A DNA stretch of 64,000 bases from Allomuricauda sp. (GTDB taxonomy: Bacteria > Bacteroidota > Bacteroidia > Flavobacteriales > Flavobacteriaceae), in the NCBI GenBank assembly GCA_002699205.1, contig PABT01000040.1, positions 139,774 through 203,773 on the forward strand, given 5' to 3'. The translations under genes were made by a program, and so were the position numbers. The notes under the pieces are model-generated. The model made no database searches. It was not told the origin of the DNA and saw only the letters and a list, made by a program, of their open reading frames with translations. Every line of letters starts with the position of its first letter. The first letter of the stretch is position 1. Shown here one piece after another: positions 32,060-64,000 of the stretch.

Positions 32060-35000
32060 ATGTTCACTTACTGCCGAATTACGATTATATTGTTTGTCCT
32101 TTCTTTTCAGGTGTATGGACAAGATTTTGAAAGATTTTCCAACGCAGAGGGGTTTAATCAAAACACCATCAATTCCATTGTTCAGGATTGTTATGGTTTT
32201 ATATGGTTGGGAACTCCCAATGGGCTTATTCGATATGATGGATATGAATTCAGGACCTTTACCACCCAGTCAAATATAGAAGGGGAAATCTTAAGCAACT
32301 TTATAACTCGTTTATATAATGATGCCCGAGGGGTGCTATGGATAGGAACGAATCTGGGCTTAAATTTCTATGTTCCATCCTTGGAAAGGTTTTATACCGT
32401 GCCATTATCCAAAAGGTTAAGGGTAAATACCATTGATACAGGTTCGGATAATACTATCTGGTTTGCGGCCGATGACGAACTCTATGTTGGTCAATTGGAG
32501 GACAAGGAAAAAGGTATATTCAATATTTCGGACAACCTCTTGGAATCCATACCGGATATTTCTACCATCAATGATATAGCCTTTAAAGATTCACTGTCGA
32601 TGGTCTTGGCTACGGAAAAGGGATTGAAAAAATTGAACTTTACTAAAGCATCGGGGGACCGTTTATTTAAGGTGGAATCCGCAATATCCCTAAAAACTTT
32701 CGAAAATGATGAGGTCACCAATATCCTGGTACAGGACAATCTATTTTGGATAAGCACCGATAATGGGCTGTACAAGACAACTTTTGAAGGGGATATTATG
32801 CATGTTATTGATGTTTTTGATGATTTGGGTGATTCGGAAACATCCGATGGGGGAATAGCGGTTAGGACCATATATGAAGATCATTCGGGCTCCCTTTGGA
32901 TAGGAACAAAGGAACACGGCCTTTTTAAATATGAAGAAAAAGGATTCAAGCACTTTGCACATGATCCAAAGAATGATCTGGGGTTGAGCAGTCCCCAGGT
33001 CAATGCCATATATCAAGATGATTTTGGTGTATTATGGATTGGTACCGCCCAAGCTGGGTTGAACAAACTGGATTTGTCCCAAAAACAATTTTATGGCTAC
33101 TCTAATAATCCATATGAACCCAATTCCCTATCCGATAATCTATTGATGGCTGTTTTGGAAGACAACAAGGGGCGGTTATGGTTGTCCGGATATAATGAGG
33201 AACTGTATAGGAGTACAACCTCAGTGAACGATTCCACCGTAAGGTCGCTCCGGTTTGAGGTTTTGGAAGGAAAGTTGGAATTGAGTGATTCTGATGTTGT
33301 TAGGAGTATTTCTGAGGATAGGAACGGTTTTTTATGGTTTGGTACGGATTATAAAATTATTGTATATAATCCTGAAGACGGACGATACAAGGATATTTCG
33401 TTTGAAAAAGATGAAAAGCCATATCACATAGGGGAAATCAGGGAAGTTTATCAAATAGATGATAGCCATGTACTTATTGCAGGCTCTTCCATTGCCATTG
33501 TTTCCAATCCTTGGCCAATTATCAGGACAAGCACGAATCCACAATTGTCGGTGTTGTCCTGTGTGGGCTTTGAATCTGAAAGGGTACAGGCCTTGGTGGA
33601 AAACCAAAAAGGATCATTTTGGTTTGGAACCAACAAGGGATTATTGCACGGGAATTTTAACGGTAAGGAAATCAAGATAGACCATCGAATTTCAGAGGAG
33701 GTCACTGATGGATTAAAGTTGACTTACAGAAATGTATTCTCTTTGTTGAGCAGTGGAAACAATGTTATTTGGATCGGTACTTTTGGAGGTGGGTTAAATA
33801 AAATGACGTTGGATGAGCAGGGAGCCCCAAAGAAAATGGAGTATTTTAGAAAAAATGATTTTCTACCAGATGATGCTATTTACGGTCTGCTACAAGTGGA
33901 AGATGAACACATTTGGATGAGTACCGATATGGGGCTGGTTAGGATGGATGTAAGAAACCATGCAGTGGATGTGTTCGATGTTCGTGATGGTCTTCCCCAG
34001 AATAATTTTAGGCAAGGGGCATATTTTAAAGGAAATTCAGGCTACCTATATTTTGGGGGATTAAACGGATTGACAATTTTTAAGCCTGAAAATATAGTAC
34101 TGAACGAGCAGCCTCCCAATGTATTGATAACGGACTTGCTTATCAACAATGAACGGGTGGAAATAGGCGAGAAGTTAAGGAAAAAGATTGTACTTGACAG
34201 GTCGATTTCGGAAACGGACAGCATAACGGTCAACAAGACACAACAACAAAGTATTGCATTCAATTTGGTGGTGGAACACACCACAAGCCCATCCAAAAAC
34301 AAATTGGCGTACAAGCTTGAGAATTTTAACGATGAATGGATAGAGGAGGATACCGGTAAGGCCACGATAACCTATACCAATCTGGCTGCCGGTAGTTATA
34401 CTTTCAAAGTGCGGGCAGCGAATGGGGACGGTTTTTGGGCAACCGAGGCAAAAACATTGCATTTGGAAATACTACCACCATGGTACCAAACATGGTGGAG
34501 CTATGTACTGTTCATTATTTTAATTGTTAGTGCGGGCATTGGTGTCGTGGTGTATTTTAGCCAACACGAGAAATTAAAACAACGACTAAAATTTGAAAAA
34601 CTTGATAAGGAAAGGCAACAAACGATCAATCAAGGGAAGTTCCGTTATTTTACGAACCTTTCCCATGAGTTTAGAACACCGCTGACATTGATATCGGGTC
34701 CATTGGAGCATATCATGGCCCAGAACAAGGATCCTGAGAACAGAAAATATTTGGAGATAATCAGAAAAAACACAAAGAGACTCTTGAGTTTGGTGGATCA
34801 GCTGATTACCTTTCGACAAGCGGAACAAGGGCATTTGAATTTACAGCTCAGCAAGGATACTTTGGGAGGGTTTATGTATCCTACCACCGAAGCCTTTGAG
34901 AATTACGCTAAAGAGAAGGATATCAATTTTTATTATAAGGTCAGTTCCCCGGATGAGGAAATCATCATTGATGTAGAAAAAACAGAGCGTATTATCTTTA

Positions 35001-36199
35001 ACTTACTATCCAATTCCTTTAAGAACACCCCTCCAAAGGGTAGCATCAGCGTAGAGGCAAAAATCACTGTCGATTCCGGAAAAAAAATGATACATATCGA
35101 TGTAATCGATAATGGAAAAGGAATTCCTCCCGAGGATCTAGACAATATTTTTGAACGCTTTTATCAACTTGGAAACAAATTGGGTAAGGTCAGTGGTGGA
35201 GGAATAGGCTTATCTTTTTGTAAATCACTTGTCAACCTATTGGAAGGTGAAATTTCAGCAAAAAGCGATCCTGGTGTGGAGACTCGGTTTTCTGTGGTTA
35301 TTCCATCAAAATCGATCTCGGAATATGGTGCTGATAATATAGGCCCTTCTGGCCAATCCTTTATCAAAGATTGGGTTCCTCTCGGAACTGAAATTACCAA
35401 AGATGTCGTGACAACCGATAAAACGGTAGGGGACAAGGATTTTAGTGTGCTTATTGTAGAGAATGAAGTGGATGTGCAGACATTTTTGACCAGTACACTA
35501 TCCAAAAAATATAATTTAAGAGTAGCCAACAATGGGGTGGAGGGTTTAGCCAAAATCAAGGAAAAACATCCTGACTTGGTAATAAGTGATGTTATGATGC
35601 CCGAAATGGACGGTTTTGAATTATGTGAAAGAATAAAATCAGATGTGGAGTTGAGCCATATTTCTGTTTTATTGTTGACGGCATTGGGAGACCAGGAAGA
35701 CATAATCAAGGGCTTGGAGTTTGGGGCCGATGAATATTTGAGCAAGCCTTTTTCCATCAGGCATTTGGAACTTCGTATTGAAAGGCTTATTCAAAATAAA
35801 ACGAAGTTGCTGCAACATTTTTCCAAAAAAAGTGAATTGCCCAAGGAAGATATCCAAATTTCCAAACGGGACAAGGAATTTTTGAATAAGGTGATAGAGG
35901 CCATAGAAAACAATCTCTCTGATTCCAATTTCGGGGTAGAAGAACTGGCCTTACAAGTGGGATTGAGCACATCCCATTTTTATAGACGTCTAAAACAGCT
36001 GACAGGACAAGTGCCCAATGTGTACCTACGGAATTTTAGACTTCAACGGGCGGCTGAATTATTGGGTAACAATGAGGGCTACAATGTAACTGAGGTTATG
36101 TATCAAATAGGAATAGAATCAAATTCCTATTTCTCCACATCATTTAAAAAACTTCACGGAATGTCTCCTTCCGAATTTGTCAAACAAAAAAAGGCCTAA
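32060..36199 (+). CDS. Hybrid two-component sensor-regulator (HTCS)
   Basis: Reg_prop propeller repeats, Y_Y_Y domain, TM helix, SHEFRTPLT, HATPase, REC (DVMMP), AraC HTH. Confidence 0.96.
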   Translation: MFTYCRITIILFVLSFQVYGQDFERFSNAEGFNQNTINSIVQDCYGFIWLGTPNGLIRYDGYEFRTFTTQSNIEGEILSNFITRLYNDARGVLWIGTNLGLNFYVPSLERFYTVPLSKRLRVNTIDTGSDNTIWFAADDELYVGQLEDKEKGIFNISDNLLESIPDISTINDIAFKDSLSMVLATEKGLKKLNFTKASGDRLFKVESAISLKTFENDEVTNILVQDNLFWISTDNGLYKTTFEGDIMHVIDVFDDLGDSETSDGGIAVRTIYEDHSGSLWIGTKEHGLFKYEEKGFKHFAHDPKNDLGLSSPQVNAIYQDDFGVLWIGTAQAGLNKLDLSQKQFYGYSNNPYEPNSLSDNLLMAVLEDNKGRLWLSGYNEELYRSTTSVNDSTVRSLRFEVLEGKLELSDSDVVRSISEDRNGFLWFGTDYKIIVYNPEDGRYKDISFEKDEKPYHIGEIREVYQIDDSHVLIAGSSIAIVSNPWPIIRTSTNPQLSVLSCVGFESERVQALVENQKGSFWFGTNKGLLHGNFNGKEIKIDHRISEEVTDGLKLTYRNVFSLLSSGNNVIWIGTFGGGLNKMTLDEQGAPKKMEYFRKNDFLPDDAIYGLLQVEDEHIWMSTDMGLVRMDVRNHAVDVFDVRDGLPQNNFRQGAYFKGNSGYLYFGGLNGLTIFKPENIVLNEQPPNVLITDLLINNERVEIGEKLRKKIVLDRSISETDSITVNKTQQQSIAFNLVVEHTTSPSKNKLAYKLENFNDEWIEEDTGKATITYTNLAAGSYTFKVRAANGDGFWATEAKTLHLEILPPWYQTWWSYVLFIILIVSAGIGVVVYFSQHEKLKQRLKFEKLDKERQQTINQGKFRYFTNLSHEFRTPLTLISGPLEHIMAQNKDPENRKYLEIIRKNTKRLLSLVDQLITFRQAEQGHLNLQLSKDTLGGFMYPTTEAFENYAKEKDINFYYKVSSPDEEIIIDVEKTERIIFNLLSNSFKNTPPKGSISVEAKITVDSGKKMIHIDVIDNGKGIPPEDLDNIFERFYQLGNKLGKVSGGGIGLSFCKSLVNLLEGEISAKSDPGVETRFSVVIPSKSISEYGADNIGPSGQSFIKDWVPLGTEITKDVVTTDKTVGDKDFSVLIVENEVDVQTFLTSTLSKKYNLRVANNGVEGLAKIKEKHPDLVISDVMMPEMDGFELCERIKSDVELSHISVLLLTALGDQEDIIKGLEFGADEYLSKPFSIRHLELRIERLIQNKTKLLQHFSKKSELPKEDIQISKRDKEFLNKVIEAIENNLSDSNFGVEELALQVGLSTSHFYRRLKQLTGQVPNVYLRNFRLQRAAELLGNNEGYNVTEVMYQIGIESNSYFSTSFKKLHGMSPSEFVKQKKA

Positions 36200-36402: not shown

Positions 36403-36650
36403 CACAAATAGAATCAAACCTAAACCCATTCACCAGGGAAAGATGTAAACCTTGTTTCCTTGTCCATGGGGATAGACTAAGCTTAAGGTGGAACCCCTTA
36501 ATTATGATGAACCCTGACCTAGGGTCATTTGCAAATGTTAAGGAGAGCCGCTTATCTCTTGATTTTTCGGTTTGCCATATCATTGGTTTGATCAGTGGGT
36601 TCAAGGCGCGTCGTATCGGCCTTTTGGACATAAATTTTAAATAATTGAAA

Positions 36651-38420
36651 ATGCGAATTAAAGTTCTCTTAGTTGTATTGCTGTTTCATAGTGTGTTTCT
36701 GATGGCACAAGAAAAACAGGAAATGGATGAAATGTGGGGTAATCAAACTACAAAACAAAAGGATGTGCCATTGGAGCGTTCGGCCATGTTTGACCAAGGG
36801 AATTATTCAATGTTCATTCATTGGGGGCTATATTCCAATATTGGCAATAAATGGAAGGATAGTACCTACTACGGCATTAGTGAATGGATCATGCACCCTA
36901 AGAGGGCGGGGATACCTGTAGCCGAATATAAGGCAGAAGCAAAGAAGTTTAATCCTGTAAATTTTGATGCGAGGGCTATTGCAAAATTGGCCAAGGATGC
37001 TGGAATGAAATATATTGTCATTACCAGCAAACACCATGATGGTTTTGCGATGTACGATTCCAAGGTCAACGACTTTAATATCGTTAAGGCAAGCCCTTAC
37101 GGAATAGATCCCATGAAAGAATTGGCAAAAGCCTGTAAAGAATTGGGTCTAGGTTTTGGTTTTTATTATTCACACAATCAAGATTGGACTTTTCCAGGTG
37201 GTAATGGCGGGCCAACGGTCAATGATCAGGGTAAAGAAGTTGGTTTTGATCATTATTTTAAAGAAAAATGTTTGCCACAGGTAAAGGAAATCGTGACCAA
37301 ATATGGCGATATAGACTTGGTTTGGTTCGATACACCCGGAGATATGAAAAAAGAGTACGTGGAAAAATTGGTCAATGTGGTCAGAAAGCATCAGCCCAAT
37401 GCCATGATTTCAGGAAGAGCTGGGCATGGACTCGGAGATTACGAGTCATTGGGAGATATGAACATTCCCGTAAAAAACTTGCCAGGTCTTTGGGAGACAG
37501 TGGATGTAACCAATGATTCTTGGGGCTATGCTTGGTATGATGAAAATTGGAAAAGCCCTGAACAGATATTAAGAAATCTTATTTCAACGGTAGCTAGGGG
37601 AGGTACATATATGCTTAATGTGGGTCCTACCCCTGACGGGAGCGTACCTGTACAGGCACAAAAGGCATTGGAGGCCTCTGGTAAATGGATAGCCAAGTAT
37701 CCACAAGTTATCTATGGAGCAGGTTCATCACCATGGGGGAGAGCACTTCCTTGGGGGGATGTCACGGTTGCTTCTGACGGAAAAATGAACATTGCCGTGT
37801 ACAAATGGCCCTTGGATGGTACACTGTGGCTTCCGGGATTGAAGAACAAGATTACTTCAGCCGTTCTTTGGGTTGATGGAAAAGGTAAGGCCCTCGAATA
37901 TGGAAGGAAGGGAGATTGGGTCAATCTGGCTCTTCCGGCAAAACGTCCCGAAAAATTGGTTTCTGTCATTGAACTTCAAGTAGAGGGAACCCCGAAAATC
38001 ACTACCAAAAACAGTATCGATCCCGTTTATATAACTGAAATTCCTGTAGATTTTGCGACTGCATCAGGATGTACCATCACCGAAAAAAGATGGATGGAAA
38101 AATTTGGGGAATGGAAACATATTACCCAAGCTCAAGATTGGAATAAGTCTGGTACTGTGACTTGGGAAATAGAAATTTTGGAAGCAGGTACTTATCAAAC
38201 AAAACTTAATTATGCGGGAGAAGGTCGTTTGGTCTGGAAAATTCTGTCCGATGAGGGATATACGGTTCAGAACCAACAGAATTCTTCGAGTATATACGAA
38301 TATCACGAAATGGGGGTGATGAAGTTTGATAAACCGGGTAAACATACCATAACAGTTTCATTGGTCAATGGGGACAGGGACAAGGTAAGTTTGAACGCTA
38401 TAAGCTTCACTCCTTGGTAA
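36651..38420 (+). CDS. GH29 alpha-L-fucosidase with C-terminal CBM-like domain
   Basis: FIHWGLYS, SEW, TSKHHDGF, VWFD nucleophile, YMLNVGP. Confidence 0.93.
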   Translation: MRIKVLLVVLLFHSVFLMAQEKQEMDEMWGNQTTKQKDVPLERSAMFDQGNYSMFIHWGLYSNIGNKWKDSTYYGISEWIMHPKRAGIPVAEYKAEAKKFNPVNFDARAIAKLAKDAGMKYIVITSKHHDGFAMYDSKVNDFNIVKASPYGIDPMKELAKACKELGLGFGFYYSHNQDWTFPGGNGGPTVNDQGKEVGFDHYFKEKCLPQVKEIVTKYGDIDLVWFDTPGDMKKEYVEKLVNVVRKHQPNAMISGRAGHGLGDYESLGDMNIPVKNLPGLWETVDVTNDSWGYAWYDENWKSPEQILRNLISTVARGGTYMLNVGPTPDGSVPVQAQKALEASGKWIAKYPQVIYGAGSSPWGRALPWGDVTVASDGKMNIAVYKWPLDGTLWLPGLKNKITSAVLWVDGKGKALEYGRKGDWVNLALPAKRPEKLVSVIELQVEGTPKITTKNSIDPVYITEIPVDFATASGCTITEKRWMEKFGEWKHITQAQDWNKSGTVTWEIEILEAGTYQTKLNYAGEGRLVWKILSDEGYTVQNQQNSSSIYEYHEMGVMKFDKPGKHTITVSLVNGDRDKVSLNAISFTPW

Positions 38421-38733: not shown

Positions 38734-40218
38734 ATGATAAAACAAATTTTTATATCCATACCTATTTTGTTGTGCACCATAGTTGGTCTGGGACAGAAAT
38801 CACCGAATGTCCCTCCTGACCTCGTGGCACCCGATTGGGAATCGATCGCAGATCATTACAAGGTGCCAGATTGGTTGCAGGATGCCAAATATGGGGTTTG
38901 GTTCCATTGGGGCATTCCATCGGCGACGGACGAAAATAGACCGAACGATGGATCATGGTATGGAAGAAATATGTATGGGGGAGCTAAAAAACAGGCCAAG
39001 GTATTGTCTGCTTGGCATACCGAGCACTATGGCCCTCCAGAAGAATTCGGTTATGAAAAATTAATCCCTCTGTTCAAGGGTGAAAATTGGGATCCAGATG
39101 CCTTGACTGCATTTGTAAAGGAAAATGGTGCCCGTTTTATTATGCCCGTTGCCACCCATCACGATAATTTTGATATGTACGATTCCTTCCATCCTTGGAA
39201 TTCCGTAGATATGGGACCAAAACGGGATGTACTCGGGGAATGGAAGTCCGCTGCTACAAAGTATGGGCTTAAGTTCGGGGTTTCTACCCATCTCTATTGG
39301 TCACCCGGATGGTGGAGACCGGCCCGTAAATACCAAACAGAGGGGACCTTGGAGTGGAAGCTGTTCAATATGGACTACGACCCGGAAAATTATGCCCACC
39401 AAGACAGCTGGAACAAACATTGGTATGCCCGCAGTTGGGAAATTGTTGAAAAGTATGACCCGGATATTTTCAATCACGATAGCGGCTCTTACCCAGAAAA
39501 GGAATTCCCTTTGTTCATTTCGGAATATCTCAATCGGGATTTGAAGGAAAACAACGGAGAACAAACGGTGGTTTTCTCTACCAAGAACCCTTCCCTGAAC
39601 CGTAAGGCCTTTACCTATAATTTGGAACGTGGTGGTGCAGATGAAATTAAAGAAGAGATTTGGTTGTGGGCAACGGATCTCTCCGGAAATTGGTTTTATC
39701 GAAAAAATGCGGTCAACAAAATGAGTATCCCCGTAATGGTGTCAAATGCTGTGGATGCGATAAGTAAGAATGGTATTGTGATGCTCAATATAGCGCTTCG
39801 TGGAGACGGTACAATTCCTGAAAAACAAATTGAATACTTGACCGCTTTTGGAGACTTCCTAAAAATCAATGGGGAAGGAATTTACGGTTCCCGTCCTTGG
39901 AAAACCTTTGGGGAAGGAACTTTGCAAATTAAGGATGGCAGGCAAGGGGAGAACCACAATAAGTACTCCCAAGCAGATATCCGATTTACCACCAAAGATG
40001 GGGTATTATATGCTTTTGTACTTGCTCCGCCAACCGATGACATTGTTATAAATACGTTGGCCAAAAATGGATTGCTGGACCAAAAAATAACCCATATAGC
40101 ATTAATGGGCAGTGATGAAAAAATAAAATGGAAACGGAACAAAAAAAACTTGACCATCCAACTGCCCGAACAGTTGCCTGGCAAAATTGTCAATGGATTT
40201 AAGATAACTGTGAAATAA
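38734..40218 (+). CDS. GH29 alpha-L-fucosidase-family enzyme
   Basis: DAKYGVWFHWG, ATHHDNF, IFNHD, MLNI, DIRFTTK C-terminal domain. Confidence 0.88.
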   Translation: MIKQIFISIPILLCTIVGLGQKSPNVPPDLVAPDWESIADHYKVPDWLQDAKYGVWFHWGIPSATDENRPNDGSWYGRNMYGGAKKQAKVLSAWHTEHYGPPEEFGYEKLIPLFKGENWDPDALTAFVKENGARFIMPVATHHDNFDMYDSFHPWNSVDMGPKRDVLGEWKSAATKYGLKFGVSTHLYWSPGWWRPARKYQTEGTLEWKLFNMDYDPENYAHQDSWNKHWYARSWEIVEKYDPDIFNHDSGSYPEKEFPLFISEYLNRDLKENNGEQTVVFSTKNPSLNRKAFTYNLERGGADEIKEEIWLWATDLSGNWFYRKNAVNKMSIPVMVSNAVDAISKNGIVMLNIALRGDGTIPEKQIEYLTAFGDFLKINGEGIYGSRPWKTFGEGTLQIKDGRQGENHNKYSQADIRFTTKDGVLYAFVLAPPTDDIVINTLAKNGLLDQKITHIALMGSDEKIKWKRNKKNLTIQLPEQLPGKIVNGFKITVK

Positions 40219-40235
40219 AAACTACCTCCGACCAA

Positions 40236-41834
40236 ATGATATTGAAACCAAAAAAAAGTATAATCCTATTGTTTGTTGGGTTTTTGAGCCTTCTAGGAAG
40301 ATCTCAGACCCATTCGTCCTCGGATAATGCCCCGAACATTATCTATATTTTGGCGGATGACCTTGGAATTGGGGATTTGAGCATCTATAACGAAAATAGC
40401 AAGATCAAAACTCCAAATCTCGACCAAATGGGGGGCCAGGGAATGATGTTCACGGACGCCCATACCTCTTCGTCGGTCTGTACCCCTACGCGATATGGAA
40501 TTTTGACTGGCAGATATAATTGGAGAACACCTTTGAAACAATTTGTGACCTGGGGCAATTCCCCCATGCTGATCAAGGATGACCGTCTAACCGTTGCGGA
40601 TATGTTGAAACAACATGGTTACAAAACAGCGGTCGTTGGGAAATGGCATCTAGGTCTTAACTGGAGCATGAAGGAAGGGGGGAAGGAATATGAGAACTAT
40701 ACGGGTATTGAAGATCGTTTTGATCCAAGTCTGATCAATTATGAAAAACCGCTGAAAAAAGGAGCGTTGGATCTGGGGTTTGATTACTCTTACTTAATAT
40801 CCGCATCCCTTAACATGCCTCCCTATGTTTACATTGAAAATGACCAGGTGGTAAGACAGCCCTATCAGGTTTCAGAAAGAAAAAAGGATGAATACCCTTA
40901 TGCAAATTGGATAAAAGGGGATATATCCCCTGATTTTAAACATGAGGAGGTCTTGCCGGTTTTTGTGGATAAAGCTGTTTCTTATATACAGGAGAATGGA
41001 AGAAAACAGAAACCTTTTTTCCTTTATATACCGCTTCCCGCACCCCATAATCCCATCTTGCCTATAGCACCGTGGAAAGGGAAAAGTAAAATCAATCCCT
41101 ATGCCGATTTTGTTTTGATGATAGATGATTTGGTAGGTAAAATATTTGAAGCAATCGAAAAAAGTGGCATAGCGGAAAATACTATGGTGATTTTTACCAG
41201 TGATAATGGCTGCGCTAAAAATGCCAACTTTTCGGTTTTAAAGGCGAAAGGACATAACCCAAGTTATATCTATAGGGGCAGCAAAGGTAGCTATTATGAA
41301 GGGGGGCACCGCGTGCCCTTTTTGGTAAAGTGGCCCGAAAAGATTAAACCTGGCAGCATATCCGATACGGCTGTGTGCACCACGGATTTCATGGCAACTT
41401 GTGCAGAAATTGTAGGCTATCGGCTTCAAGATGACGAGGGAGAGGATAGCTATAGCATGATGCCATTGTTTCAGCAAAGAGAAGGATACCAAAGAACTTC
41501 TATAGTCCATCACAGTCTGCGAGGTATTTTCGCCATCCGTAAGGGGAATTGGAAATTGATCCTATCTCCGAATTCAGGTATTTTACCAAACGGGAAGCCT
41601 GAAAAATTACCTGAAAAGTTACCCGAATACATGTTATATAATCTAGAAGAGGATATTGGCGAAACAAAGAATGTTGCCGCGCAATACCCTGATAAAGTTC
41701 GGGAACTGAAAGAGTTGCTCATTCGGCAAATTCATGACGGTAGGAGCACTCCTGGAAAAAAACAAGCCAACGATTCGATAAGTTTTCCTTGGGTACAGGC
41801 CCAATTTGCCTTTCAAGGGGTATCGGATAAATGA
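40236..41834 (+). CDS. Cys-type S1 sulfatase (S1_15-like)
   Basis: LADDLG, VCTPTRYGILTGR, GKWHLG, FTSDNG, EGGHRVP. Confidence 0.93.
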   Translation: MILKPKKSIILLFVGFLSLLGRSQTHSSSDNAPNIIYILADDLGIGDLSIYNENSKIKTPNLDQMGGQGMMFTDAHTSSSVCTPTRYGILTGRYNWRTPLKQFVTWGNSPMLIKDDRLTVADMLKQHGYKTAVVGKWHLGLNWSMKEGGKEYENYTGIEDRFDPSLINYEKPLKKGALDLGFDYSYLISASLNMPPYVYIENDQVVRQPYQVSERKKDEYPYANWIKGDISPDFKHEEVLPVFVDKAVSYIQENGRKQKPFFLYIPLPAPHNPILPIAPWKGKSKINPYADFVLMIDDLVGKIFEAIEKSGIAENTMVIFTSDNGCAKNANFSVLKAKGHNPSYIYRGSKGSYYEGGHRVPFLVKWPEKIKPGSISDTAVCTTDFMATCAEIVGYRLQDDEGEDSYSMMPLFQQREGYQRTSIVHHSLRGIFAIRKGNWKLILSPNSGILPNGKPEKLPEKLPEYMLYNLEEDIGETKNVAAQYPDKVRELKELLIRQIHDGRSTPGKKQANDSISFPWVQAQFAFQGVSDK

Positions 41835-55503: not shown

Positions 55504-55525
55504 ACCTACAAATTTATATAAGCAA

Positions 55526-57385
55526 ATGAAAAAATACAGTTTACAAAGTGCTATCATCGCCCTGACCTTACTATTGGGTAGTTGTGGAGACAGGGCACAA
55601 AAGGCAACGGAAAAAGTGGAAGAGCCAGGGAGGGCCCCCAATGTGCTGATCGTGGTCACCGATGACCAGGGGTATGGGGATTTTGGTTTTACGGGAAACC
55701 CCGCGATCAAGACCCCCACGATAGACAAACTCAGTAAGGAGGGAACGCTGTTGAACAATTTCCATGTGGATCCCACATGCGCGCCAACCCGTGCGGCCCT
55801 GATGACGGGGCGTTATTCTGACCGGGTCGGTGTTTGGCACACCGTTCAAGGACGTAACATGTTGCGCAGGCGCGAAACCACTATGGCAGATGTATTCGGC
55901 GCCAATGGTTATGCCACAGGGCTATTTGGTAAATGGCACCTTGGGGATTGTTACCCCTACCGACCTGAAGACCGAGGTTTCCAGTACAGTGTTTACCATA
56001 AGGCCGGGGGCGTGGGCCAGGCCCCGGATTATTGGGGGAACGATTATTTTGATGACACGTACATCGTCAATGGCAAGCACCAGCGTTTTGAAGGTTATTG
56101 CACCGATATTTGGTTCAACGAAGGGATGAAGTTTATCAAGAAAAACAAGGATAATCCATTTTTTGCCTATATCTCGCTCAATGCTCCGCATAAACCCCTT
56201 TACTGCCCCGAAGAATATGTCAAGCCCTATGTGAATGACCCCAGGGTATCTTTTCCGGAATTTTATGGTATGATAACCAATATCGATGATAATATGGCAC
56301 GTCTGTTGAAAATGTTGGATGACGAGGGCATTGCGGACAACACTATACTCATCTTTATGACGGACAATGGTACCGCAAGCGGGATCGTTGACGGTAGGGG
56401 CTACGATGGTGGCATGCGCGGGATGAAAAATTCGGAATATGAGGGAGGACACCGTGTGCCCTTCATTATCCGTTGGCCAAATGGAAAAATAGCGGAGGGA
56501 AAATCGATTGAGGAGCTCACCGCACATATTGATATTCTCCCTACGCTCATTGATCTATGTGGGCTCGATGCACCTGAAATCGAATACGATGGCACCAGCA
56601 TTAGGGAACTTCTATATTCAGAAAACCCAGATTGGCCCAAGCGTTCCTTGGTGGTAGAGTCGCAAAGGGTGGTAGACCCCATCAAATGGCGTAAAAGTGC
56701 AGTGATGTACGATCGCTGGCGTTTGGTCAATGGGAAAGAACTGTACCAACTGGACCAAGACCCCAAACAGACTACGGACGTTGCAGAGGTAAATCCAGAG
56801 GTGTTTAAACAGTTACAAGGGGAATACAATACATTTTGGGACGATGTCTCACAAGAACACGACCTGACCAGCTATATGGTCATCGGGTCCGATCGTTCGC
56901 CTATTGTCTCTCTTTCCTCACATGATTGGTTGATCGATAGACTTCCACCATGGAACCAAGGACATATCATCAACGGAGAGGTGGCCGAAGAATCCTTTTG
57001 GGCCATTGAAGTGGAGCATGACGGCGAATATGAAATTTCACTTAGGCGCTGGCCGGTTGAAGCGGACAAGGGAATCAATGACGGTACTTATGGCAAGGCT
57101 TTCAATTACCAGCAGGCCCGTATGCGAATCGGGGATTTTGATGAAACCGTTGACATTCCCGAAGGAGCCAAGGAGGTTACCTTTAGGGTGAACCTGAAAA
57201 AGGGCGTCACCAAACTGGCCCCTTTGTTCATCGGTCCGGATTTGACCGCCACCCCTTATTATGCCTATGTTACACATAAACCCAAACCGGGTTGGCAAAC
57301 ACCCGAGGGAATGGGGATTCCAGTGTACGATCCATCTTATGGAAGAGTGCCGCCCCAGAAAAAACAAATAAATATTTCCGAGTAA
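55526..57385 (+). CDS. Cys-type S1 sulfatase lipoprotein (S1_17-like) with C-terminal extra domain
   Basis: Lipobox LGSC; [32 protein letters not shown]. Confidence 0.93.
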
Positions 57386-57395
57386 TTAAGAACGG

Positions 57396-59252
57396 ATGCA
57401 AGACATTTTGACAAAAATTGTAATCGCTGTGGTTGCTGCGATTGGATTACTCCATTCCTGTGAACCCCATTCGAACTTGGTTGTCCAGGACGCTAGCTTT
57501 TGGGTGGTTCTTGAAGCTGAAGAGGCAAAAGAAACAGGGAATGAATTGTTTTGGGAGTTTCAACTAAACAGACCAGGGATCTATAACATCCAAATTTTAA
57601 GGGATGGGGAGCAGGTTGCTCCTTTGCCCAAGGTTTCCCTGTCCAGTGCTGGCGTTAGCATGGAAGAAGAACCTCCAAACATTTTTGTAATTCAAGAAGC
57701 AGGGGAACAAAAAACGGTTTCACAGTTTAACAAAACCATACAATATGATACTGCCGGATTGCACAACTTGGTTCTAAAAGTGGATGTTCCAATTGATAAG
57801 GTTCGCATTACTCCTCTCTATAGCAAGAATCTTGGTTTTGGGACTGATACGTATTATGGGGAATGGTTGCAAATGCACCAATCCCCGGAGAAACAAGCAG
57901 CCTTGGAATGGTTTAAAGATGCTAAATATGGCATGTTCATCCATTGGGGGCTGTATTCCCAAGCCGGGGGCATTTGGAAGGGGGAGCGAATGGAAGATTC
58001 GAAAAACCCCGGCCCCAACGTTTCGGAATGGTTGATGCATAAATTTCAGATACCTAGAAAGGAGTATGCCGAAATGGCCAAAACCTTTGACCCGGATAAC
58101 ACTTTTGCCAAAAATATCGCCAAACTGGCGAAAGATGCCGGGATGAAATATGTGGTCATTACCACGAAGCACCATGACGGATTTGCTTTGTTTGATTCAA
58201 AATGTTCGGAGTATGATATGGTGGATGCCACGCCGTATAAGGCAGATGCCGTAAAGGAATTATATGAAGCCTGTTTGGCGGAAGGTTTGGCTTTTGGGGT
58301 ATATTACTCACATGGTAATGATTGGTACGACGGTACAGATGGCAATTACGCAAATGTTAAAAAGCGCAATGATTCTCTGGGGATTCTGACCCATGCCAGT
58401 GGGAAAAACCTTTGGGATCCCAGTCCGAACACACACGCTGGGTACATAGAGAACAAAGCATTGCCACAAGTTCAAGAGCTCCTGGATTTGCTCCCAAAGT
58501 TGCGCTTGTTCTGGTTTGATGGAGATGGTTTTATAACCGAAGCCCAAGCTTTTAAGTTCTATAAGCTCGTCTACGAAAACAATCCAAGTATTTTGGTAAA
58601 TCGTAGGGTTGGTTTTGATTTTGGGGATTATTTGGACGCAGGAGACAATAAAATCCCAGCTGTATCCGATCAATTGACCAAGTATTTCGAAACATGTGGG
58701 ACAACCAACAATTCTTGGGCATACAAATCTTATGACAATGATTGGAAAAGCACCAAAGAACTCCTTTATTACCTTGTTGACATAGCTTCCAAAGGGGGTA
58801 ATTACTTGTTGAATATTGGACCGGATGGTAAAGGAAATGTGCCGGAACAAAGTCAAATACGACTTAGGGCAATTGGAGAATGGTTGGATGTATATGGTGA
58901 TGCGATCTATGGGACTACCCGATGGAAGATCACAAAAGAAGGTGGGGATGAAACCTTACTGGGAGGAACGGAGCATAGGGCCAAGAAAGGCTTCTCCCGT
59001 ACTTTTTCATCGAATGATTTTTGGTTTACTACGAAAGGAAACAAGGTATATGTCATTTCCTTGGTAAATCCGGATAAATCCATCAATATAAAATCTTTAA
59101 ACGTTGACCAGGGGGAAGTTCAGGATGTGAGGTTGCTTGGCAATACCGTTGATCTTCAATGGGCGCAAAGTAACACTGGGTTAACGGTGGATTTGACAGG
59201 AATTTCTGTGAACGATAACGGATATGCCCTTGAAATAACTTTAAAAAAATAA
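57396..59252 (+). CDS. GH29 alpha-L-fucosidase lipoprotein with N-terminal CBM-like domain
   Basis: Lipobox LHSC; about 150-aa N-terminal beta domain; [27 protein letters not shown]. Confidence 0.92.
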   Translation: MQDILTKIVIAVVAAIGLLHSCEPHSNLVVQDASFWVVLEAEEAKETGNELFWEFQLNRPGIYNIQILRDGEQVAPLPKVSLSSAGVSMEEEPPNIFVIQEAGEQKTVSQFNKTIQYDTAGLHNLVLKVDVPIDKVRITPLYSKNLGFGTDTYYGEWLQMHQSPEKQAALEWFKDAKYGMFIHWGLYSQAGGIWKGERMEDSKNPGPNVSEWLMHKFQIPRKEYAEMAKTFDPDNTFAKNIAKLAKDAGMKYVVITTKHHDGFALFDSKCSEYDMVDATPYKADAVKELYEACLAEGLAFGVYYSHGNDWYDGTDGNYANVKKRNDSLGILTHASGKNLWDPSPNTHAGYIENKALPQVQELLDLLPKLRLFWFDGDGFITEAQAFKFYKLVYENNPSILVNRRVGFDFGDYLDAGDNKIPAVSDQLTKYFETCGTTNNSWAYKSYDNDWKSTKELLYYLVDIASKGGNYLLNIGPDGKGNVPEQSQIRLRAIGEWLDVYGDAIYGTTRWKITKEGGDETLLGGTEHRAKKGFSRTFSSNDFWFTTKGNKVYVISLVNPDKSINIKSLNVDQGEVQDVRLLGNTVDLQWAQSNTGLTVDLTGISVNDNGYALEITLKK

Positions 59253-59253
59253 C

Positions 59254-60696
59254 ATGAAAAACTCACTTATTTACTTCTTGATTTTTATGTCCGTTTTTGC
59301 CCATGCGCAAGAAGGGCAAAAGGGAAACAAGCCAGAAAAGAAGAAAAGGGATATAAGTTTCGAGTATCGTTTTCCTGAAGACTTAAAACAGACTCCAGAT
59401 TCGGAACGGCGATTGGATCAATGGTTCCGAGATGCCAAATTTGGCGCCTTTATCCATTTCGGGGTTTATTCCACCTTGGAAGGGGAGTACAAAGGACGTG
59501 GGTCTGACTTTCGCTATAGTGAATGGATTCAAGTTTCTGCAAAGATTCCTGCCAATGAATATCATGGGATAGCCGCACAATTTAACCCCGTTGATTTTGA
59601 TGCCGAAGCTTGGGTCAAAGTTTTTAAGGATGCAGGGATGCGTTATGTGGTCATCACTTCTAAACACCATGATGGATTTGCCTTGTTTAAGTCTGAGGTA
59701 AGTAATTACAATATAGTTGATTATACCCCTTTTAAGCGTGATATCATTAAAGAATTGAGTGAAGCCTGTCATAAAAATGGATTGAAGTTTGGGGTCTATT
59801 ATTCCCAGGCCCAGGATTGGGATGAGCCCAATGCTCCCTTTTTGAACAAAAAAGCATCCGCGTTTGACCTTCACCCAGAGTTGCCCGAGGACTTTGAACC
59901 GGATATGGATAGTTATATTATGGGGAAATCCCTTCCTCAGGTAGAGGAACTGGTTAAAAATTATGAAATTGATTTGTTGTGGTTTGATACTCCGGTTGGA
60001 ATGACCTATGAACGGGCCAAATTGTTTTCGGACATGGTTCGGAAATACCGCCCCAATTGCGTAATCAATTCACGAATCATCCATAATGGAAAATCAAGAA
60101 TCGAAGCTAAAAATTTACCTTTATTTGACTATGTGTCCATTGGAGATAAGGAAGTGCCCACAAAAAAGCTTCCCCTTTATGTTGAATCCCCTGATTGTGT
60201 TAGCTCATCCTTTGGCTACAAAACACATGGCAAGGTATATTATCACGATGTTAAAGAGTTGATCCATCGTATGGTGAGTACAGTATGTGTTGGTGGAAAT
60301 TATTTGTTGAACAACGGACCAATGGGTAACGGAAGATTGGATCCGGAAGCCGTTCGTTTGTATGGGGAAATCGGCCAGTGGATGAAATTGAACAGTGAAT
60401 CTATTCTGGATACACGTCCCAATCCTTTTCCATATAAACCCGAATGGGGAGGCATTAGTATGAACAAGGATGGATCAATATTATACCTTCATGTTCTTAA
60501 TATGCCAGAATCAGGGACTATTTCGCTAAAGGGATTACCTGTGACCGTGACTTCGGCAAAATATCTTTCCAATGATAGTATGGTAAACTTTGTGCAAGAC
60601 GGGGATCATGTTCGTTTCACAGAACTTCAACATACAATTGATCCCATTGATGTTGTGGTCAAGGTTGTGTTGAAGACCCCCTGGTTTAAAGATTAA
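59254..60696 (+). CDS. GH29 alpha-L-fucosidase
   Basis: DAKFGAFIHFG, SEW, TSKHHDGF, LWFDT, YLLN. Confidence 0.93.
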   Translation: MKNSLIYFLIFMSVFAHAQEGQKGNKPEKKKRDISFEYRFPEDLKQTPDSERRLDQWFRDAKFGAFIHFGVYSTLEGEYKGRGSDFRYSEWIQVSAKIPANEYHGIAAQFNPVDFDAEAWVKVFKDAGMRYVVITSKHHDGFALFKSEVSNYNIVDYTPFKRDIIKELSEACHKNGLKFGVYYSQAQDWDEPNAPFLNKKASAFDLHPELPEDFEPDMDSYIMGKSLPQVEELVKNYEIDLLWFDTPVGMTYERAKLFSDMVRKYRPNCVINSRIIHNGKSRIEAKNLPLFDYVSIGDKEVPTKKLPLYVESPDCVSSSFGYKTHGKVYYHDVKELIHRMVSTVCVGGNYLLNNGPMGNGRLDPEAVRLYGEIGQWMKLNSESILDTRPNPFPYKPEWGGISMNKDGSILYLHVLNMPESGTISLKGLPVTVTSAKYLSNDSMVNFVQDGDHVRFTELQHTIDPIDVVVKVVLKTPWFKD

Positions 60697-60822
60697 AAGA
60701 CATAGGTAATCCTATTCAAAATAAATCGGGAAACAATTGTATTATTTATTGGGCCTGTAGTGGTAAAACAAAGAACCATTGGTGGATAATAAATAACTTC
60801 TTTCTTAATTCGGAGTACAACG

Positions 60823-60932
60823 GTTCCTGTCCCTTAGATTCAAAAAACGTATTCTTTGCACTTTTCCGGTCTATTTGTTCGCCGACCATTAAGGAAAACA
60901 AAAAACATAAGCTTCATCTTAGGGACAGGCAC
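60823..60932. repeat. Imperfect 17-bp inverted repeat enclosing 76 bp
   Basis: GTTCCTGTCCCTTAGAT (60823-60839) / ATCTTAGGGACAGGCAC (60916-60932), 2 mismatches. Confidence 0.55.
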
Positions 60933-61281
60933 TCGATTGTAGTCAGGAAATATCTACACCAAAAACCATACTGGAAGGAGTAATGGGAACCATTCATAAG
61001 TAGATAATTTTAATTGGAAATAAACGGCACTTGCTGTTATAGTGACACAGGATGGAGGCGTAGTTGTTGCTCCAGGGTTTAATGCATTTGTAATTGGGTG
61101 ATTAATCTAAAATGAAAGAAAAACAACCTTTTAGGAACAACTTTTTTTCACCTTACTGTTTTCAATTCAATAGCGTCAATTCCGTATGGACTCTGTTTAA
61201 AAAATGCGGCGAAATATAAATTGTACAAATATTGACGCCCATTTTTGTTGCTTTATCGTTTATTCGGTCATGTTTTTGGCA

Positions 61282-61352
61282 TTTTGATGGAAATAAGCAA
61301 AAGAAAGATGGATGAGAGAAATATGAACGAATATCAGGTGGGTAGGTTTGTT
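61282..61352 (+). promoter_or_regulatory. HTCS-type PUL promoter, copy 3 (susC)
   Basis: 39-bp motif, 22 nt, then TAGGTTTGTT at 61343. Confidence 0.8.
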
Positions 61353-61518
61353 CAACGCTGCAATGATGGCCGTAACGATTGTTGTGCTCATTGGCAAGAT
61401 AATTCAATAATCAATTTCAAAATAGTTCATATGATAAAATGAAAAAGTATAAAAATCAACAATAAAAATGACTGACAACTTATGTGCACTAAACTAAATA
61501 CTAATGCAAACTAAAATT

Positions 61519-64000
61519 ATGAAACAAATATTAAGTGTTTTTTTGATGTTTTTATCGGTTTCGGTCCTTGCCCAACAGAGGAATGTAACAGGTACCGTAA
61601 CAGATGAAATGGGCGTTCCTTTGGCAGGAGCGACCTTAGTGGTCAAGGGGACCACGAATGGGACTATGACCGATTTTGACGGTAATTATTCTTTAACAGC
61701 CAATATTGGTGATGTTATTTCCTTTTCATTCGTTGGAATGGAATCCAAGGAAGTTGTGGTTGAATCGGACATCTTGAATGTAACCTTGAATACCTCGCAA
61801 CAGCAACTGGATGAAGTTGTGGTAATTGGTTACGGAACGGCCAAAAAAAGTGATTTGACAGGTGCGGTGGCTACCGTGGATGCCCAAGAGGCCTATGTAG
61901 CACCAACTGCAAGTTTGGATAATGGCCTTCAAGGAAGGGCATCAGGAGTTCAGGTAACTACCGCGAATGGCGAACCTGGCAGTTCTGCAACCATTAGAAT
62001 ACGTGGAGGAAACTCCATAACCGCAGGAAACGAACCTCTTTATGTAATAGATGGATTTGTGGGCGCTGGGGATCTTTCTACATTGAATCCCAATGATATA
62101 GAATCCATTCAGATTTTGAAGGACGCGTCCTCAACTGCTATCTATGGTGCCAGGGGTACTAATGGTGTTGTATTGATTACCACCAAAAAAGGTCGGGTCG
62201 GTAAGATGCAAGTGAATTTTAAAGCTTCTTCCGGGATGCAGAAATTACCAAGTAAGATAGACGTGCAAACAGGACGCGAATTTGCTGAATTTATTAATAA
62301 TGCAGATCCCGATCCAAGTGATGGTTTACCCTTTGACTTGAACAACCTTCCAGGAGAAGAAACAGATTGGCAGGATGAAATGATTCAGACGGCCCCAATG
62401 TCCGATTATCAATTATCGGTGCGTGGAGGTTCGGAAGCGGCTACCTATTTTGCTTCAATGGGATACCTTGATCAGGAAGGTATTGTAAAAGGAACAGGTT
62501 TTGAACGAATCAGTTTGCGTACAAACGTGGATTTTCAGATTTCGAAAGTTTTTAAAGCAGGAGTGAACCTATCACTTTCAAAAACGAAAAGCGACAACAA
62601 CAGTGTGGATTTTATCGATTTGATACGACAAGATCCCAGAAAGCCGGTTTATGATAGTGAAGGGAACTATACTTTGGACAATGTTCCTTTTCTGACAACC
62701 AATTCAGCAACGCACCCATTGGCACAGAATACCTTGAACGAGAACCAAACCCGTAGACATAGAGCATTGATAAATACTTATGTACAGGCCCAGTTTGGTG
62801 GTTTTACCGTGAAATCAACTTTTGGAGGTGATTTCCTTTTTAGTAAACAACATCAGTTTTCACCTTCTTCTTACCCAACCAACATTGTAAACGGGCGACT
62901 CGCATCTGCTAATATCAATCGTTTTGATGATGTTGATTTGCTCAATGAAAATACCATTAACTATACCAACACATTTGGGGACCATACAATTAGCGCTTTG
63001 GGAGGTGTTACGATACAGTCCCAGAATCGAGAAACCTTAATTGTCAATGCAAATGAAATACCGAGTGACGGGGTAGGGGTCAATGCCGTGGAATTGGCTC
63101 CGTTGGAGGAAACTTCCATGAACTCTGACTACTCAGAGTTTTCCTTGTTCTCTTTGTTGGGAAGGGTTGATTACTCCTATAAGGATAAATATTTGATTAC
63201 TGGTACAATAAGAAGGGACGGATCTTCAAGGTTGGGTGAAAACAATAGATTTGCGATTTTTCCATCTGCGGCGGTGGCATGGAAAATATCGGAAGAGCCG
63301 TTTCTTCAAAATGTGGAGGCCATAAACCAGTTAAAGTTAAGAGCTAGTTATGGGGTGACAGGTAATCAGGGCATAGACCCGTTTAGTACACTGTCTACCT
63401 TCAATACGTTGAATACGGCCGTCATTTTAAATGGAGTACCGGTATCTGGCGTACAGCAGGGAAGTCTTTCAAACCCCAATTTGAAATGGGAAACCACGAC
63501 CCAATATGATGTGGCACTGGAATTTTCACTGTTCAACAATAGACTTTCTGGTGAAGTGGACTTCTACTCCAAGAAAACGGAAGACCTATTATTGGCCGCG
63601 GAAGTGCCATTCTTTACAGGTTTCACCACTACGATTCAGAATGTAGGGTCACTTGAAAACAAGGGTTTCGATGTAAACCTAAAGGGTGTTCTTGTCAACT
63701 CGGAAGATTTTGGTTTGACCACTTCGCTTAACATTTCAACCTATAAGAACAAGGTTCTGGATTTAGGGGACAAAACATTCATAGAGACCAATAGGCTGGC
63801 AGCACCCGCCAATGATGTGAACAGTCAATTAATGGTTGGTGAACCCGTGGGTATTTTTTGGGGGGCCGTATATGAGGGAATAGACCCAGCGACGGGAGAT
63901 GCTATTTTTGCCGATATCAGCGGACCAGATGGTGTGCCAGATGGTGTATATAGTCCTGAGTACGACAAAACCGTCATTGGTGATTCCAATCCTGATTTTT
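61519..64000 (+). CDS. susC: SusC/RagA TonB-dependent transporter, 3' end outside window
   Basis: Not in the ORF track (no stop). MKQILSVFLMFLSVSVLAQQRNVTGTVTDEMG...LDEVVVIGYG...LQGRASGV...IRIRG...PLYVIDG...SIQILKDASSTAIYGARGTNGVVLITTKKG. Confidence 0.97.
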   Translation, partial: MKQILSVFLMFLSVSVLAQQRNVTGTVTDEMGVPLAGATLVVKGTTNGTMTDFDGNYSLTANIGDVISFSFVGMESKEVVVESDILNVTLNTSQQQLDEVVVIGYGTAKKSDLTGAVATVDAQEAYVAPTASLDNGLQGRASGVQVTTANGEPGSSATIRIRGGNSITAGNEPLYVIDGFVGAGDLSTLNPNDIESIQILKDASSTAIYGARGTNGVVLITTKKGRVGKMQVNFKASSGMQKLPSKIDVQTGREFAEFINNADPDPSDGLPFDLNNLPGEETDWQDEMIQTAPMSDYQLSVRGGSEAATYFASMGYLDQEGIVKGTGFERISLRTNVDFQISKVFKAGVNLSLSKTKSDNNSVDFIDLIRQDPRKPVYDSEGNYTLDNVPFLTTNSATHPLAQNTLNENQTRRHRALINTYVQAQFGGFTVKSTFGGDFLFSKQHQFSPSSYPTNIVNGRLASANINRFDDVDLLNENTINYTNTFGDHTISALGGVTIQSQNRETLIVNANEIPSDGVGVNAVELAPLEETSMNSDYSEFSLFSLLGRVDYSYKDKYLITGTIRRDGSSRLGENNRFAIFPSAAVAWKISEEPFLQNVEAINQLKLRASYGVTGNQGIDPFSTLSTFNTLNTAVILNGVPVSGVQQGSLSNPNLKWETTTQYDVALEFSLFNNRLSGEVDFYSKKTEDLLLAAEVPFFTGFTTTIQNVGSLENKGFDVNLKGVLVNSEDFGLTTSLNISTYKNKVLDLGDKTFIETNRLAAPANDVNSQLMVGEPVGIFWGAVYEGIDPATGDAIFADISGPDGVPDGVYSPEYDKTVIGDSNPDF

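Follow-up and report, generated by a model that had tools for sequence, protein, structure and literature searches.

The right-hand part of the stretch of Allomuricauda sp. DNA analysed here (the window: 64,000 nucleotides, positions 139,774 to 203,773 of contig PABT01000040.1 in assembly GCA_002699205.1, or C43:139774-203773 in our numbering of this 4.47-Mb, 53-contig, 95% complete draft) carries what we take, with a probability of roughly 80%, to be a SusC/SusD-type polysaccharide utilisation locus (PUL) for the sulfated α-L-fucose backbone of fucoidan-type polymers, in which two proteins of glycoside hydrolase family 141 (GH141) serve as the sole endo-fucanases. Fucoidan ranks among the most recalcitrant polysaccharides of the sea and is relevant to carbon sequestration. 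The target polymer is probably the alternating (1→3;1→4)-linked type found in Fucus and Sargassum. An initial annotation of the window had described a fucoidan-type locus with an exo-acting enzyme set and had looked in vain for the enzyme that opens the chain; the present reading answers this puzzle, as the endo-fucanase function appears to be present in the form of the GH141 enzymes.

The first of these, GH141_a (46001..48259, forward strand; GH141_M and Beta_helix domains), lies within the window, and the second, GH141_b (L001:9423-11699; PF13229 and PF21231, with GH141_M below the cut-off), lies beyond its right edge, where positions are given on a second record, L001, that also holds the whole of the transporter gene cut by the window's end. 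Four GH141 proteins from the fucoidan cluster of Wenyingzhuangia fucanilytica have been reported to lack α-L-fucosidase activity and to depolymerise (1→3;1→4)-fucoidans, with Wf141_1 and Wf141_2 identified as endo-1→4-α-L-fucanases (EC 3.2.1.212) of the CUPP branch GH141*6 (IJMS, 31 Dec 2025; PMC12786026), and GH141 is counted among the endo-fucoidanases by Sichert et al. 2026 (PMC13668718). Wf141_1 to Wf141_4 were recognised in the W. fucanilytica genome via the termini and peptides encoded by the published cloning primers. GH141_a proved to be 70.6% identical to Wf141_4 over 741 residues, and GH141_b 67.4% identical to Wf141_1 and 62% to Wf141_2; the two proteins share only 40% identity with each other. 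With these identities and the motifs described below, both are predicted to be endo-fucanases, orthologs of demonstrated GH141 endo-fucanases, and the exo-acting character initially given to the enzyme set is not borne out.

Three motifs, QHDWDMxD, DGNxIY and IRxD, are common to GH141_a, GH141_b, Wf141_1, Wf141_2 and Wf141_4 (GH141_a reads QHDWDMFD, DGNCIY and IRCD). They place the active-site residues at W366, D550-G-N552 and R583-x-D585 in GH141_a and at W372, D551-G-N553 and R585-x-D587 in GH141_b. The distances from Trp to Arg and from Asn to Arg (217 and 31 residues) are identical in GH141_a and Wf141_4, while those in GH141_b (213 and 32) compare with 214–215 and 32 in the Wf141_1/2 type. 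This comparison used the residues numbered in PMC12786026 and not its printed signature strings (xHQxW..., DG-x24-N), which have no literal match in the window proteins; xHQxW is also unmatched in the Wf141 proteins. In a FastTree phylogeny of 143 homologs, two deep clades (support ≥0.999) each contained one of the two GH141 proteins, GH141_a grouping with Wf141_4 in a 7-member subclade (support 0.88) and GH141_b with Wf141_1 in a 14-member subclade (support 1.0). Both match the PDB structures 9RX2 and 5MQP, and GH141_b is ~70% identical to 9RX2, the source of which was traced by a genome scan to the fucoidan degrader Mariniflexile fucanivorans. The resemblance to Wf141_1, Wf141_2, Wf141_4 and 9RX2 therefore spans full-length identity (62–71%), domain layout, the three motifs and well-supported clades. 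M. fucanivorans carries a tandem GH141 pair (L049:10001-14366), one member of which is the 9RX2 protein and the other 71% identical to GH141_b; a full-text search on '9RX2' returned unrelated papers only. GH141_a has a lipobox (ISAC; FISC in Wf141_4) and GH141_b an ordinary signal peptide, suggesting that one GH141 is placed at the cell surface and the other in the periplasm.

The GH141 pair are the genome's only endo-fucanase candidates in a search that covered GH107, GH168 and GH141 but not GH174 or GH187; within the locus, each ORF has otherwise been accounted for. The cluster of W. fucanilytica contains four large GH107 paralogs, one of which matches MfFcnA (PDB 6DLH) at E 6e-168, and the GH168 enzyme FWf5 (AXE80_07365; L137:12678-13847), which bears the Pfam label GHL15 (PF14885, 'hypothetical glycosyl hydrolase-like 15'). 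Because the characterised FWf5 carries this domain, PF14885 can be used as a detector of GH168. Searching the assembly by tblastn with the four GH107 paralogs gave only a 44-bit partial match, and a hidden Markov model (HMM) built from them found nothing at E≤10 among 7664 open reading frames (ORFs), while the positive control succeeded. For GH168, the best PF14885 score in the assembly was a sub-threshold 21.5 bits, and neither tblastn nor an HMM gave a match. Similarly, the GH95 profile PF22124 had no match in the assembly (the control in B. thetaiotaomicron was positive), nor did tblastn with the W. fucanilytica GH95. The absence of GH95, GH107 and GH168, initially noted for the window, thus extends by Pfam and tblastn, and by HMM for GH107 and GH168, to the whole assembly. 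The suggestion that the endo-acting enzyme might lie beyond susC was correct in so far as a second GH141 is encoded there, and failed for GH107 and GH168, which occur nowhere in the assembly.

The initial assignment to a fucoidan-type PUL is supported by eight proteins with W. fucanilytica orthologs at 67–78% identity, among them the sulfatase SWF1. The locus encodes eight sulfatases, which fall into at least five groups. Sulf_d (50872..52362, forward strand) is an ortholog of SWF1 (67.8% identity over 494 of 495 residues), an S1_17 fucoidan exo-2-O-sulfatase, and Sulf_f (L001:4998-6506) is S1_25-like and 48.9% identical to SWF4, an S1_25 exo-3-O-sulfatase for which a HisA-to-Gly substitution is typical (PMC6315715); Sulf_f has GKFG where the other seven sulfatases carry GKWH or no such motif. 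SWF1 and SWF4 were placed in the W. fucanilytica cluster by published primers (PMC6315715). Two further forward-strand genes are related to S1_17, namely Sulf_c (49257..50798; PF00884; formylglycine (FGly) motif CSPTR), which is 47% identical to SWF1, and the lipoprotein Sulf_e (55469..57385; PF00884, E 2e-59), which is 40% identical to SWF1, probably starts at an internal Met 20 and shares 81–84% identity with genes in Arenibacter, Novipirellula and Haloferula. Sulf_a (40236..41834, forward strand; PF00884; FGly motif CTPTR) is S1_15-like, with 6S20 and 9BAS 'S1_15A' as its best PDB matches, and is 70% identical to the sulfatase adjoining Wf141_4 in W. fucanilytica. Sulf_g (L001:6415-7866) is S1_16-like, its best PDB match being an S1_16 structure, and Sulf_h (L001:11865-13382) also looks S1_16-like. 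The eighth, Sulf_b (42997..44889, forward strand), is a lipoprotein (lipobox FTSC followed by KDSKQEKD) in which PF00884 is fused to a C-terminal HEAT_2 domain. Its FGly motif, C-A-V-N-R, is non-canonical, the other seven of the eight having C-x-P/A-x-R, and the protein is rare among related loci, with 68% identity reached in a single one (L104). The acidic stretch after its lipobox resembles a surface-export signal.

All seven GH29 proteins match PF01120 at E≤1e-66 (1e-66 to 1e-85 for those in the window), and in an alignment of the seven HHD is kept throughout, as is the nucleophile Asp within (W/Y/H)(F/Y/H)D. Because pairwise identities are only 23–52%, they read as a diversified set and not as recent duplicates. 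Five lie in the window on the forward strand. GH29_a (36645..38420; PF01120, E 1e-74) has a signal peptide and is 55–56% identical to the GH29 adjoining the regulator in W. fucanilytica. GH29_b (38734..40218; PF01120 and Fucosidase_C) is the most divergent, at 23–25% identity to the other six, with its nucleophile Asp within the variant motif IFNHD, and has orthologs at 62–76% identity in loci of Planctomycetota and Verrucomicrobiota. The others are GH29_c (53647..55503; PF01120, E 3e-85), GH29_d (57396..59252), a lipoprotein (lipobox LHSC) in which an N-terminal extension of ~150 aa precedes PF01120 (residues 162–502) and Fucosidase_C, and GH29_e (59254..60696; PF01120, E 4e-82). Beyond the window, GH29_f (L001:7800-9353) shares 74% identity with one W. 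fucanilytica GH29 and GH29_g (L001:13399-15255) shares 76–77% with another, which lies beside the W. fucanilytica ortholog of the unassigned protein Unk1 (see below); judging by accession order, these partners are probably FucWf2 and FucWf3, respectively.

The single esterase (52369..53643, forward strand) is an AXE1/CE7-like acetyl esterase with an S9/DLH α/β-hydrolase fold (PF05448, 38.9 bits; PF00326; PF01738). Its orthologs, at 67–69% identity, adjoin orthologs of Sulf_d and GH29_c in four related loci (L042, L054, L008 and L018), and the module of Sulf_d, esterase and GH29_c is kept complete in L042 and L054 and in part in L053 and L056. Similarly, the GH29_e and Sulf_e pair is kept in loci of Verrucomicrobiota and Planctomycetota (L085, L065, L038 and L105).

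Pfam scans were run on every long forward-strand ORF from position 31994 to the end of the window and recovered the inventory of the initial annotation: a hybrid two-component system (HTCS), five GH29, five S1 sulfatases, a GH141-like protein, an esterase and SusC, all on the forward strand. The PUL runs ~12.5 kb beyond position 64000, to a window-equivalent of ~76481, giving a length of ~45 kb. This additional part contains the rest of SusC, SusD, three sulfatases, two GH29 and the second GH141, and is followed by genes for a phosphoenolpyruvate (PEP) synthase and a formylglycine-generating enzyme (FGE). The HTCS (31994..36199, forward strand; Reg_prop, Y_Y_Y, HisKA, HATPase_c, Response_reg and HTH_18/AraC domains) stands at the 5' end and marks the left boundary of the locus, since the genes to its left are unrelated regulators and transporters. 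The start given for it in the initial annotation, 32060, is an internal ATG of the ORF 31994-36199 and the likely true start. The HTCS is 41% identical to the regulator heading the W. fucanilytica cluster and 63% identical to a partial match in Mariniflexile gromovii (L044). The SusC-like TonB-dependent transporter (997 aa; 61504..64000 and on past the window, forward strand; full ORF L001:278-3271; CarboxypepD_reg, Plug and barrel domains) is separated by 29 bp from SusD (L001:3301-4848; SusD_RagB), and together they form the pair by which a PUL of the SusC/SusD type is recognised. The ~23–25 locus genes lie on one strand with gaps mostly below 75 bp; larger gaps of 445 bp after the HTCS, 313 bp after GH29_a and 807 bp before susC suggest three or four transcription units.

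In total, the locus encodes seven GH29, two GH141, eight S1 sulfatases, one esterase, three accessory proteins, SusC/D and the HTCS. All seven GH29, both GH141 and eight of the nine sulfatases of the 4.47-Mb assembly are found within this single 45-kb stretch, a co-location that exceeds chance by far. Fucoidan PULs have been defined by at least four CAZymes per 12-gene window, with at least two from GH29/95/107/141/168 or S1_15/16/17/22/25 and no carrageenase families (PMC13668718); with its GH29, GH141 and sulfatase content and no GH16, GH82, GH150 or GH167 domains, the locus falls within this definition. In addition, the Pfam scans gave no match to galactosidase, xylosidase, mannosidase and glucuronidase families among the locus genes, and this lack of side-chain enzymes fits a backbone (fucose and sulfate) specialist in the sense of PMC13668718.

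The same machinery could in principle serve another substrate, such as a diatom fucose-containing sulfated polysaccharide, an echinoderm or sea-cucumber fucan sulfate or a bacterial exopolymer. The lack of side-chain enzymes would suit any nearly pure sulfated fucan, W. fucanilytica uses sea-cucumber fucans too (PMC6315715), and sets of GH29, GH141 and S1_15/16/17 have been reported for degraders of diatom sulfated methyl-pentose polymers. However, the assays of the closest tested enzymes (Wf141_1, Wf141_2, Wf141_4, SWF1 and SWF4) all used brown-algal (1→3;1→4)-fucoidans and fragments of these, and the genome has none of the families, such as the GH168 FunA types, that cleave 1→3-linked echinoderm fucans. 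We therefore consider a substrate of this kind unlikely, although it is the strongest competitor of the fucoidan-backbone reading.

Less likely still is an exo-only scavenger, in which the GH141 proteins would be exo-α-L-fucosidases and the strain would import oligosaccharides from the digestion carried out by other community members. The founding GH141, BT1002 of Bacteroides thetaiotaomicron, is an exo-α-L-fucosidase acting on rhamnogalacturonan-II. Both GH141 proteins match it in the PDB (E 1.7e-14 and 9e-11), share its β-helix and GH141 insertion domain and plausibly keep both catalytic Asp residues (those of DG(N) and RxD). Division of labour among fucoidan degraders is also documented (PMC13668718), and the genome is without GH107 or GH168. 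In contrast, the similarity to BT1002, which differs in substrate and mode of action, is remote (56 and 44 bits) and weak beside the 67–71% identity to Wf141_4 and Wf141_1, which are internal cutters without fucosidase activity (PMC12786026). The active sites point in the same direction, as the two proteins carry the Trp, Asn and Arg that set the endo-fucanase branch apart from BT1002, where Gln and small or aromatic residues are found (PMC12786026). With GH141 endo-fucanase orthologs present, oligosaccharide scavenging, initially offered to account for the missing endo-enzyme, is no longer needed. Finally, a non-fucan substrate containing fucose or L-galactose, such as mucin or other host glycans, a fucosylated glycosaminoglycan or porphyran, is very improbable: GH29 and GH117 enzymes reportedly release α-L-galactose from desulfated oligo-porphyran and GH29/GH117 PULs act on glycosaminoglycans (bioRxiv 10.64898/2026.05.19.726164), and S1_15 and S1_16 relatives with PDB structures act on GalNAc-6S and carrageenan, but the locus is without GH2, GH16, GH20, GH33, GH86, GH88, a polysaccharide lyase or a β-galactosidase, an enzyme content on which mucin, carrageenan and porphyran were rejected, and its closest characterised orthologs are fucoidan-specific.

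Several points weigh against reading the locus as a GH141-driven PUL for the fucoidan backbone. The case for this strain is built from gene content, orthology and motifs, while the activities come from the W. fucanilytica orthologs. Of these, Wf141_4, the counterpart of GH141_a, is an endo-fucanase on qualitative evidence, linkage and sulfation preference having been determined for Wf141_1 and Wf141_2 only (PMC12786026), and GH141_a is placed at the surface on the strength of its lipobox and a single acidic residue that follows the Cys. Apart from S1_17 and S1_25, sulfatase subfamilies were taken from the nearest PDB match only, and the assignment did not extend to S1_22, a subfamily of endo-4-O-sulfatases. 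In addition, the 95% complete, 53-contig draft yielded no FucI, FucU, Amidohydro_2 lactonase or FucD-type dehydratase.

The lack of fucose catabolic genes, already noted for the window, thus recurs genome-wide for the canonical pathway within the limits of the tests run. The sole FucP match is sub-threshold and lies in another PUL (C42:11557-22426), which encodes an ECF sigma/anti-sigma pair, SusC/D, an LmbE-like deacetylase, an MFS transporter, a ROK kinase and an 885-aa protein and which, with gene roles read from the translations, probably serves an amino-sugar (GlcNAc-type) glycan. Three MR_MLE matches (341, 366 and 432 aa) were rejected as fucose genes and taken by their length as MenC/epimerase-like proteins and an enolase, and the FucD-like gene of a comparison locus (L130) has no homolog in the assembly. 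The region beside the W. fucanilytica cluster was likewise discarded as a site of fucose genes, as it contains recN. Another region of the genome (C12:31449-46936; L129) encodes two lactonase-like proteins and, downstream of them, an ECF anti-sigma factor, SusC/D, a fusion of a periplasmic PQQ sugar dehydrogenase with cytochrome c, an SDR and an FAH hydrolase, and its contig ends 166 bp further on. These genes could form an oxidative sugar-acid or non-phosphorylative deoxy-sugar route, with nothing tying them to fucose, and the terminal SDR and FAH pair is not matched in any of the fucoidan loci compared. Fucose may be processed along an unrecognised pathway, these genes being one candidate, or left to other organisms.

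Three proteins of the window had remained unassigned, and the initial annotation had considered that one of them might be the endo-fucanase. None of them looks like one, their folds or nearest relatives being GH117-like, CBM9-like and mutarotase-like, and on these predicted folds Unk2 and Unk3 were rejected as hidden endo-fucanases. Unk2 (44911..45930, forward strand) has no Pfam match and no PDB sequence match, but its AlphaFold model (pLDDT 86) is CBM9-like, the top Foldseek matches being the CBM9 modules 1I82 and 7NWN, together with BACUNI_03838, at E 7e-10 to 6e-8, and it is accordingly listed as a putative carbohydrate-binding protein that has no catalytic fold. Some relatives of Unk2 bear type IX secretion system (T9SS) sorting domains. 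Unk3 (48265..49242, forward strand) has a signal peptide and is modelled (pLDDT 84) as a periplasmic galactose-mutarotase-like protein of the aldose-1-epimerase fold, with the aldose 1-epimerases 3NRE, 3Q1N and 1L7K as its top Foldseek matches (E 1e-10). Unk3 has no Pfam match, nor does any of its 438 homologs, one of which, 75% identical, lies in a fucoidan-type locus; relatives at 46% identity lie in mannan-type loci.

Unk1 (41865..42929, forward strand) resembles the five-bladed β-propellers of GH117 and GH43, with a sub-threshold Pfam match to GH43 and a GH117 profile match. The profile of its family matches the GH117 3,6-anhydro-α-L-galactosidases (3P2N) at E 6e-12, over blades 2 and 3 only. 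An invariant Asn179 occupies the position of the GH117 Asp252, the blade-1 'DP' is by eye Ala or Ser followed by Pro, and Glu240-Asp241-Pro is invariant, so that Unk1 seems to be without two of the three canonical GH117/GH43 carboxylates. The family is annotated merely as 'glycoside hydrolase family protein' and is present in 11 of 127 GH141-centred loci from three phyla, including Verrucomicrobiota and Planctomycetota. In the model degraders W. fucanilytica, M. fucanivorans and Formosa algae it is kept at 60–80% identity beside GH141, GH29 and sulfatase genes, and the closest relatives of Unk1 are 76% identical in W. fucanilytica (AXE80_07375), 78% over most of the length in M. fucanivorans and 78–79% in Formosa algae and F. 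haliotis. In a metagenome-assembled genome of the Puniceicoccaceae (L046:13338-15509), and also in protein P0286, the family is fused in frame to an esterase domain. Most homologs have a lipobox Cys (LFSC-K), where Unk1 of the window has Ala (YSA-K). Published fucoidan PULs include proteins labelled 'GH117', and weak α-L-fucosidase activity is described for some GH117 members in a preprint from 2026. Unk1 might be a fucosidase that acts by an altered mechanism on acetylated or sulfated fucose, or a non-hydrolytic enzyme; that it represents an uncharacterised activity specific to fucoidan is a tentative proposal, which these sequence features make conceivable.

From these parts, the following course of degradation can be proposed. 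The HTCS would sense a periplasmic breakdown oligosaccharide and switch on the locus. At the surface, the lipoprotein GH141_a would cut the polymer internally, possibly assisted by lipoprotein sulfatases such as Sulf_b and by the CBM9-like Unk2, after which SusD would bind the fragments and SusC import them. In the periplasm, GH141_b would trim 2-O-sulfated fragments further, the CE7-like esterase would take off acetyl groups, and exo-sulfatases would strip the non-reducing end, with the SWF1 ortholog acting on 2-O-sulfate, the S1_25-like enzyme on 3-O-sulfate and the S1_15- and S1_16-like enzymes alongside them. The seven diverged GH29 would then release L-fucose, with the GH117-like propeller and the mutarotase-like protein as accessories. 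Maturation of the sulfatases would fall to the adjacent FGE (L001:18597-19700, reverse strand; PF03781, E 9e-79), which is the genome's only close FGE homolog and sits on the far side of the PEP synthase gene, ~3.1 kb downstream of the final gene of the PUL and 186 bp from the contig end.

The locus looks like an accessory set of genes that is shared laterally. Neither 24 congeneric species nor 16 genomes from the order's other families yielded a GH141 relative, modules of the locus recur at 60–82% identity in GH141-bearing loci of Bacteroidota, Planctomycetota and Verrucomicrobiota, and two of its genes stand out in GC content, all of which points to lateral sharing. These outliers are GH141_a (GC 0.49; GC at third codon positions, GC3, 0.53) and Sulf_e (GC 0.48; GC3 0.52), which are within the top 5% of the genome's long ORFs, compared with 0.39–0.46 for the rest of the locus and 0.39–0.45 for the neighbours of GH141_a; the pattern looks like recent gene-by-gene lateral replacement within the locus. 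The flanks are not conserved neighbours, as only two congeners have an ortholog of the upstream histidine kinase, and the PEP synthase downstream is not single-copy. The latter gene (L001:15550-18033), which is PEP synthase/PPDK-like and stands between the PUL and the FGE gene, has a second, 82% identical copy in the genome (C44:935-3373), and congeners have one ortholog, at 83–84% identity.

As a compact locus with one SusC/D pair and GH141 as the apparent only chain-cutters, it offers a minimal system in which to ask whether an endo set consisting of GH141 alone is enough for growth. The same system could serve to study the roles of the GH117-like, mutarotase-like, CBM9-like and HEAT-fused sulfatase proteins, and degradation without classical fucose catabolism.

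Compared with the cluster of W. fucanilytica CZ1127 (CP014224, ~1,786,000-1,846,300), the locus has the same architecture, with an HTCS at its head, a single SusC/SusD pair in mid-cluster and all genes on one strand. It shares with this cluster orthologs, at 67–78% identity, of Wf141_4, Wf141_1, SWF1, S1_15-like and S1_16-like sulfatases, two GH29 and AXE80_07375, as well as a 49% identical relative of SWF4. The adjacency of Sulf_g and GH29_f is also shared, and in W. fucanilytica the order runs from Wf141_4 through the Sulf_a ortholog to SWF1. In contrast, the Allomuricauda locus is without the four GH107, the GH168 FWf5, the GH95 FucWf5, Wf141_3 and a Wf141_2-type paralog, and it alone has the AXE1-type esterase, the sulfatase-HEAT fusion and the CBM9-like and mutarotase-like proteins, for which there is no counterpart in the 140 kb of W. 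fucanilytica examined. The two genomes also differ in their number of sulfatases, with more than 80 in W. fucanilytica (PMC6315715) and nine here. Overall, the locus is a streamlined, backbone-specialised relative of the W. fucanilytica cluster, probably acquired laterally. With the backbone specialists of Sichert et al. (PMC13668718) it has in common that nearly all enzymes target sulfate or fucose and that there are signs of lateral acquisition. However, those specialists are Verrucomicrobiota and a gammaproteobacterium without SusC/D, and the flavobacterial isolates of that study are mostly rare-sugar specialists, whereas the present locus combines a flavobacterial SusC/D system with backbone-only enzymes. 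Set beside these systems it is an ordinary, streamlined locus, which leaves current concepts unchanged and extends them to another genus.

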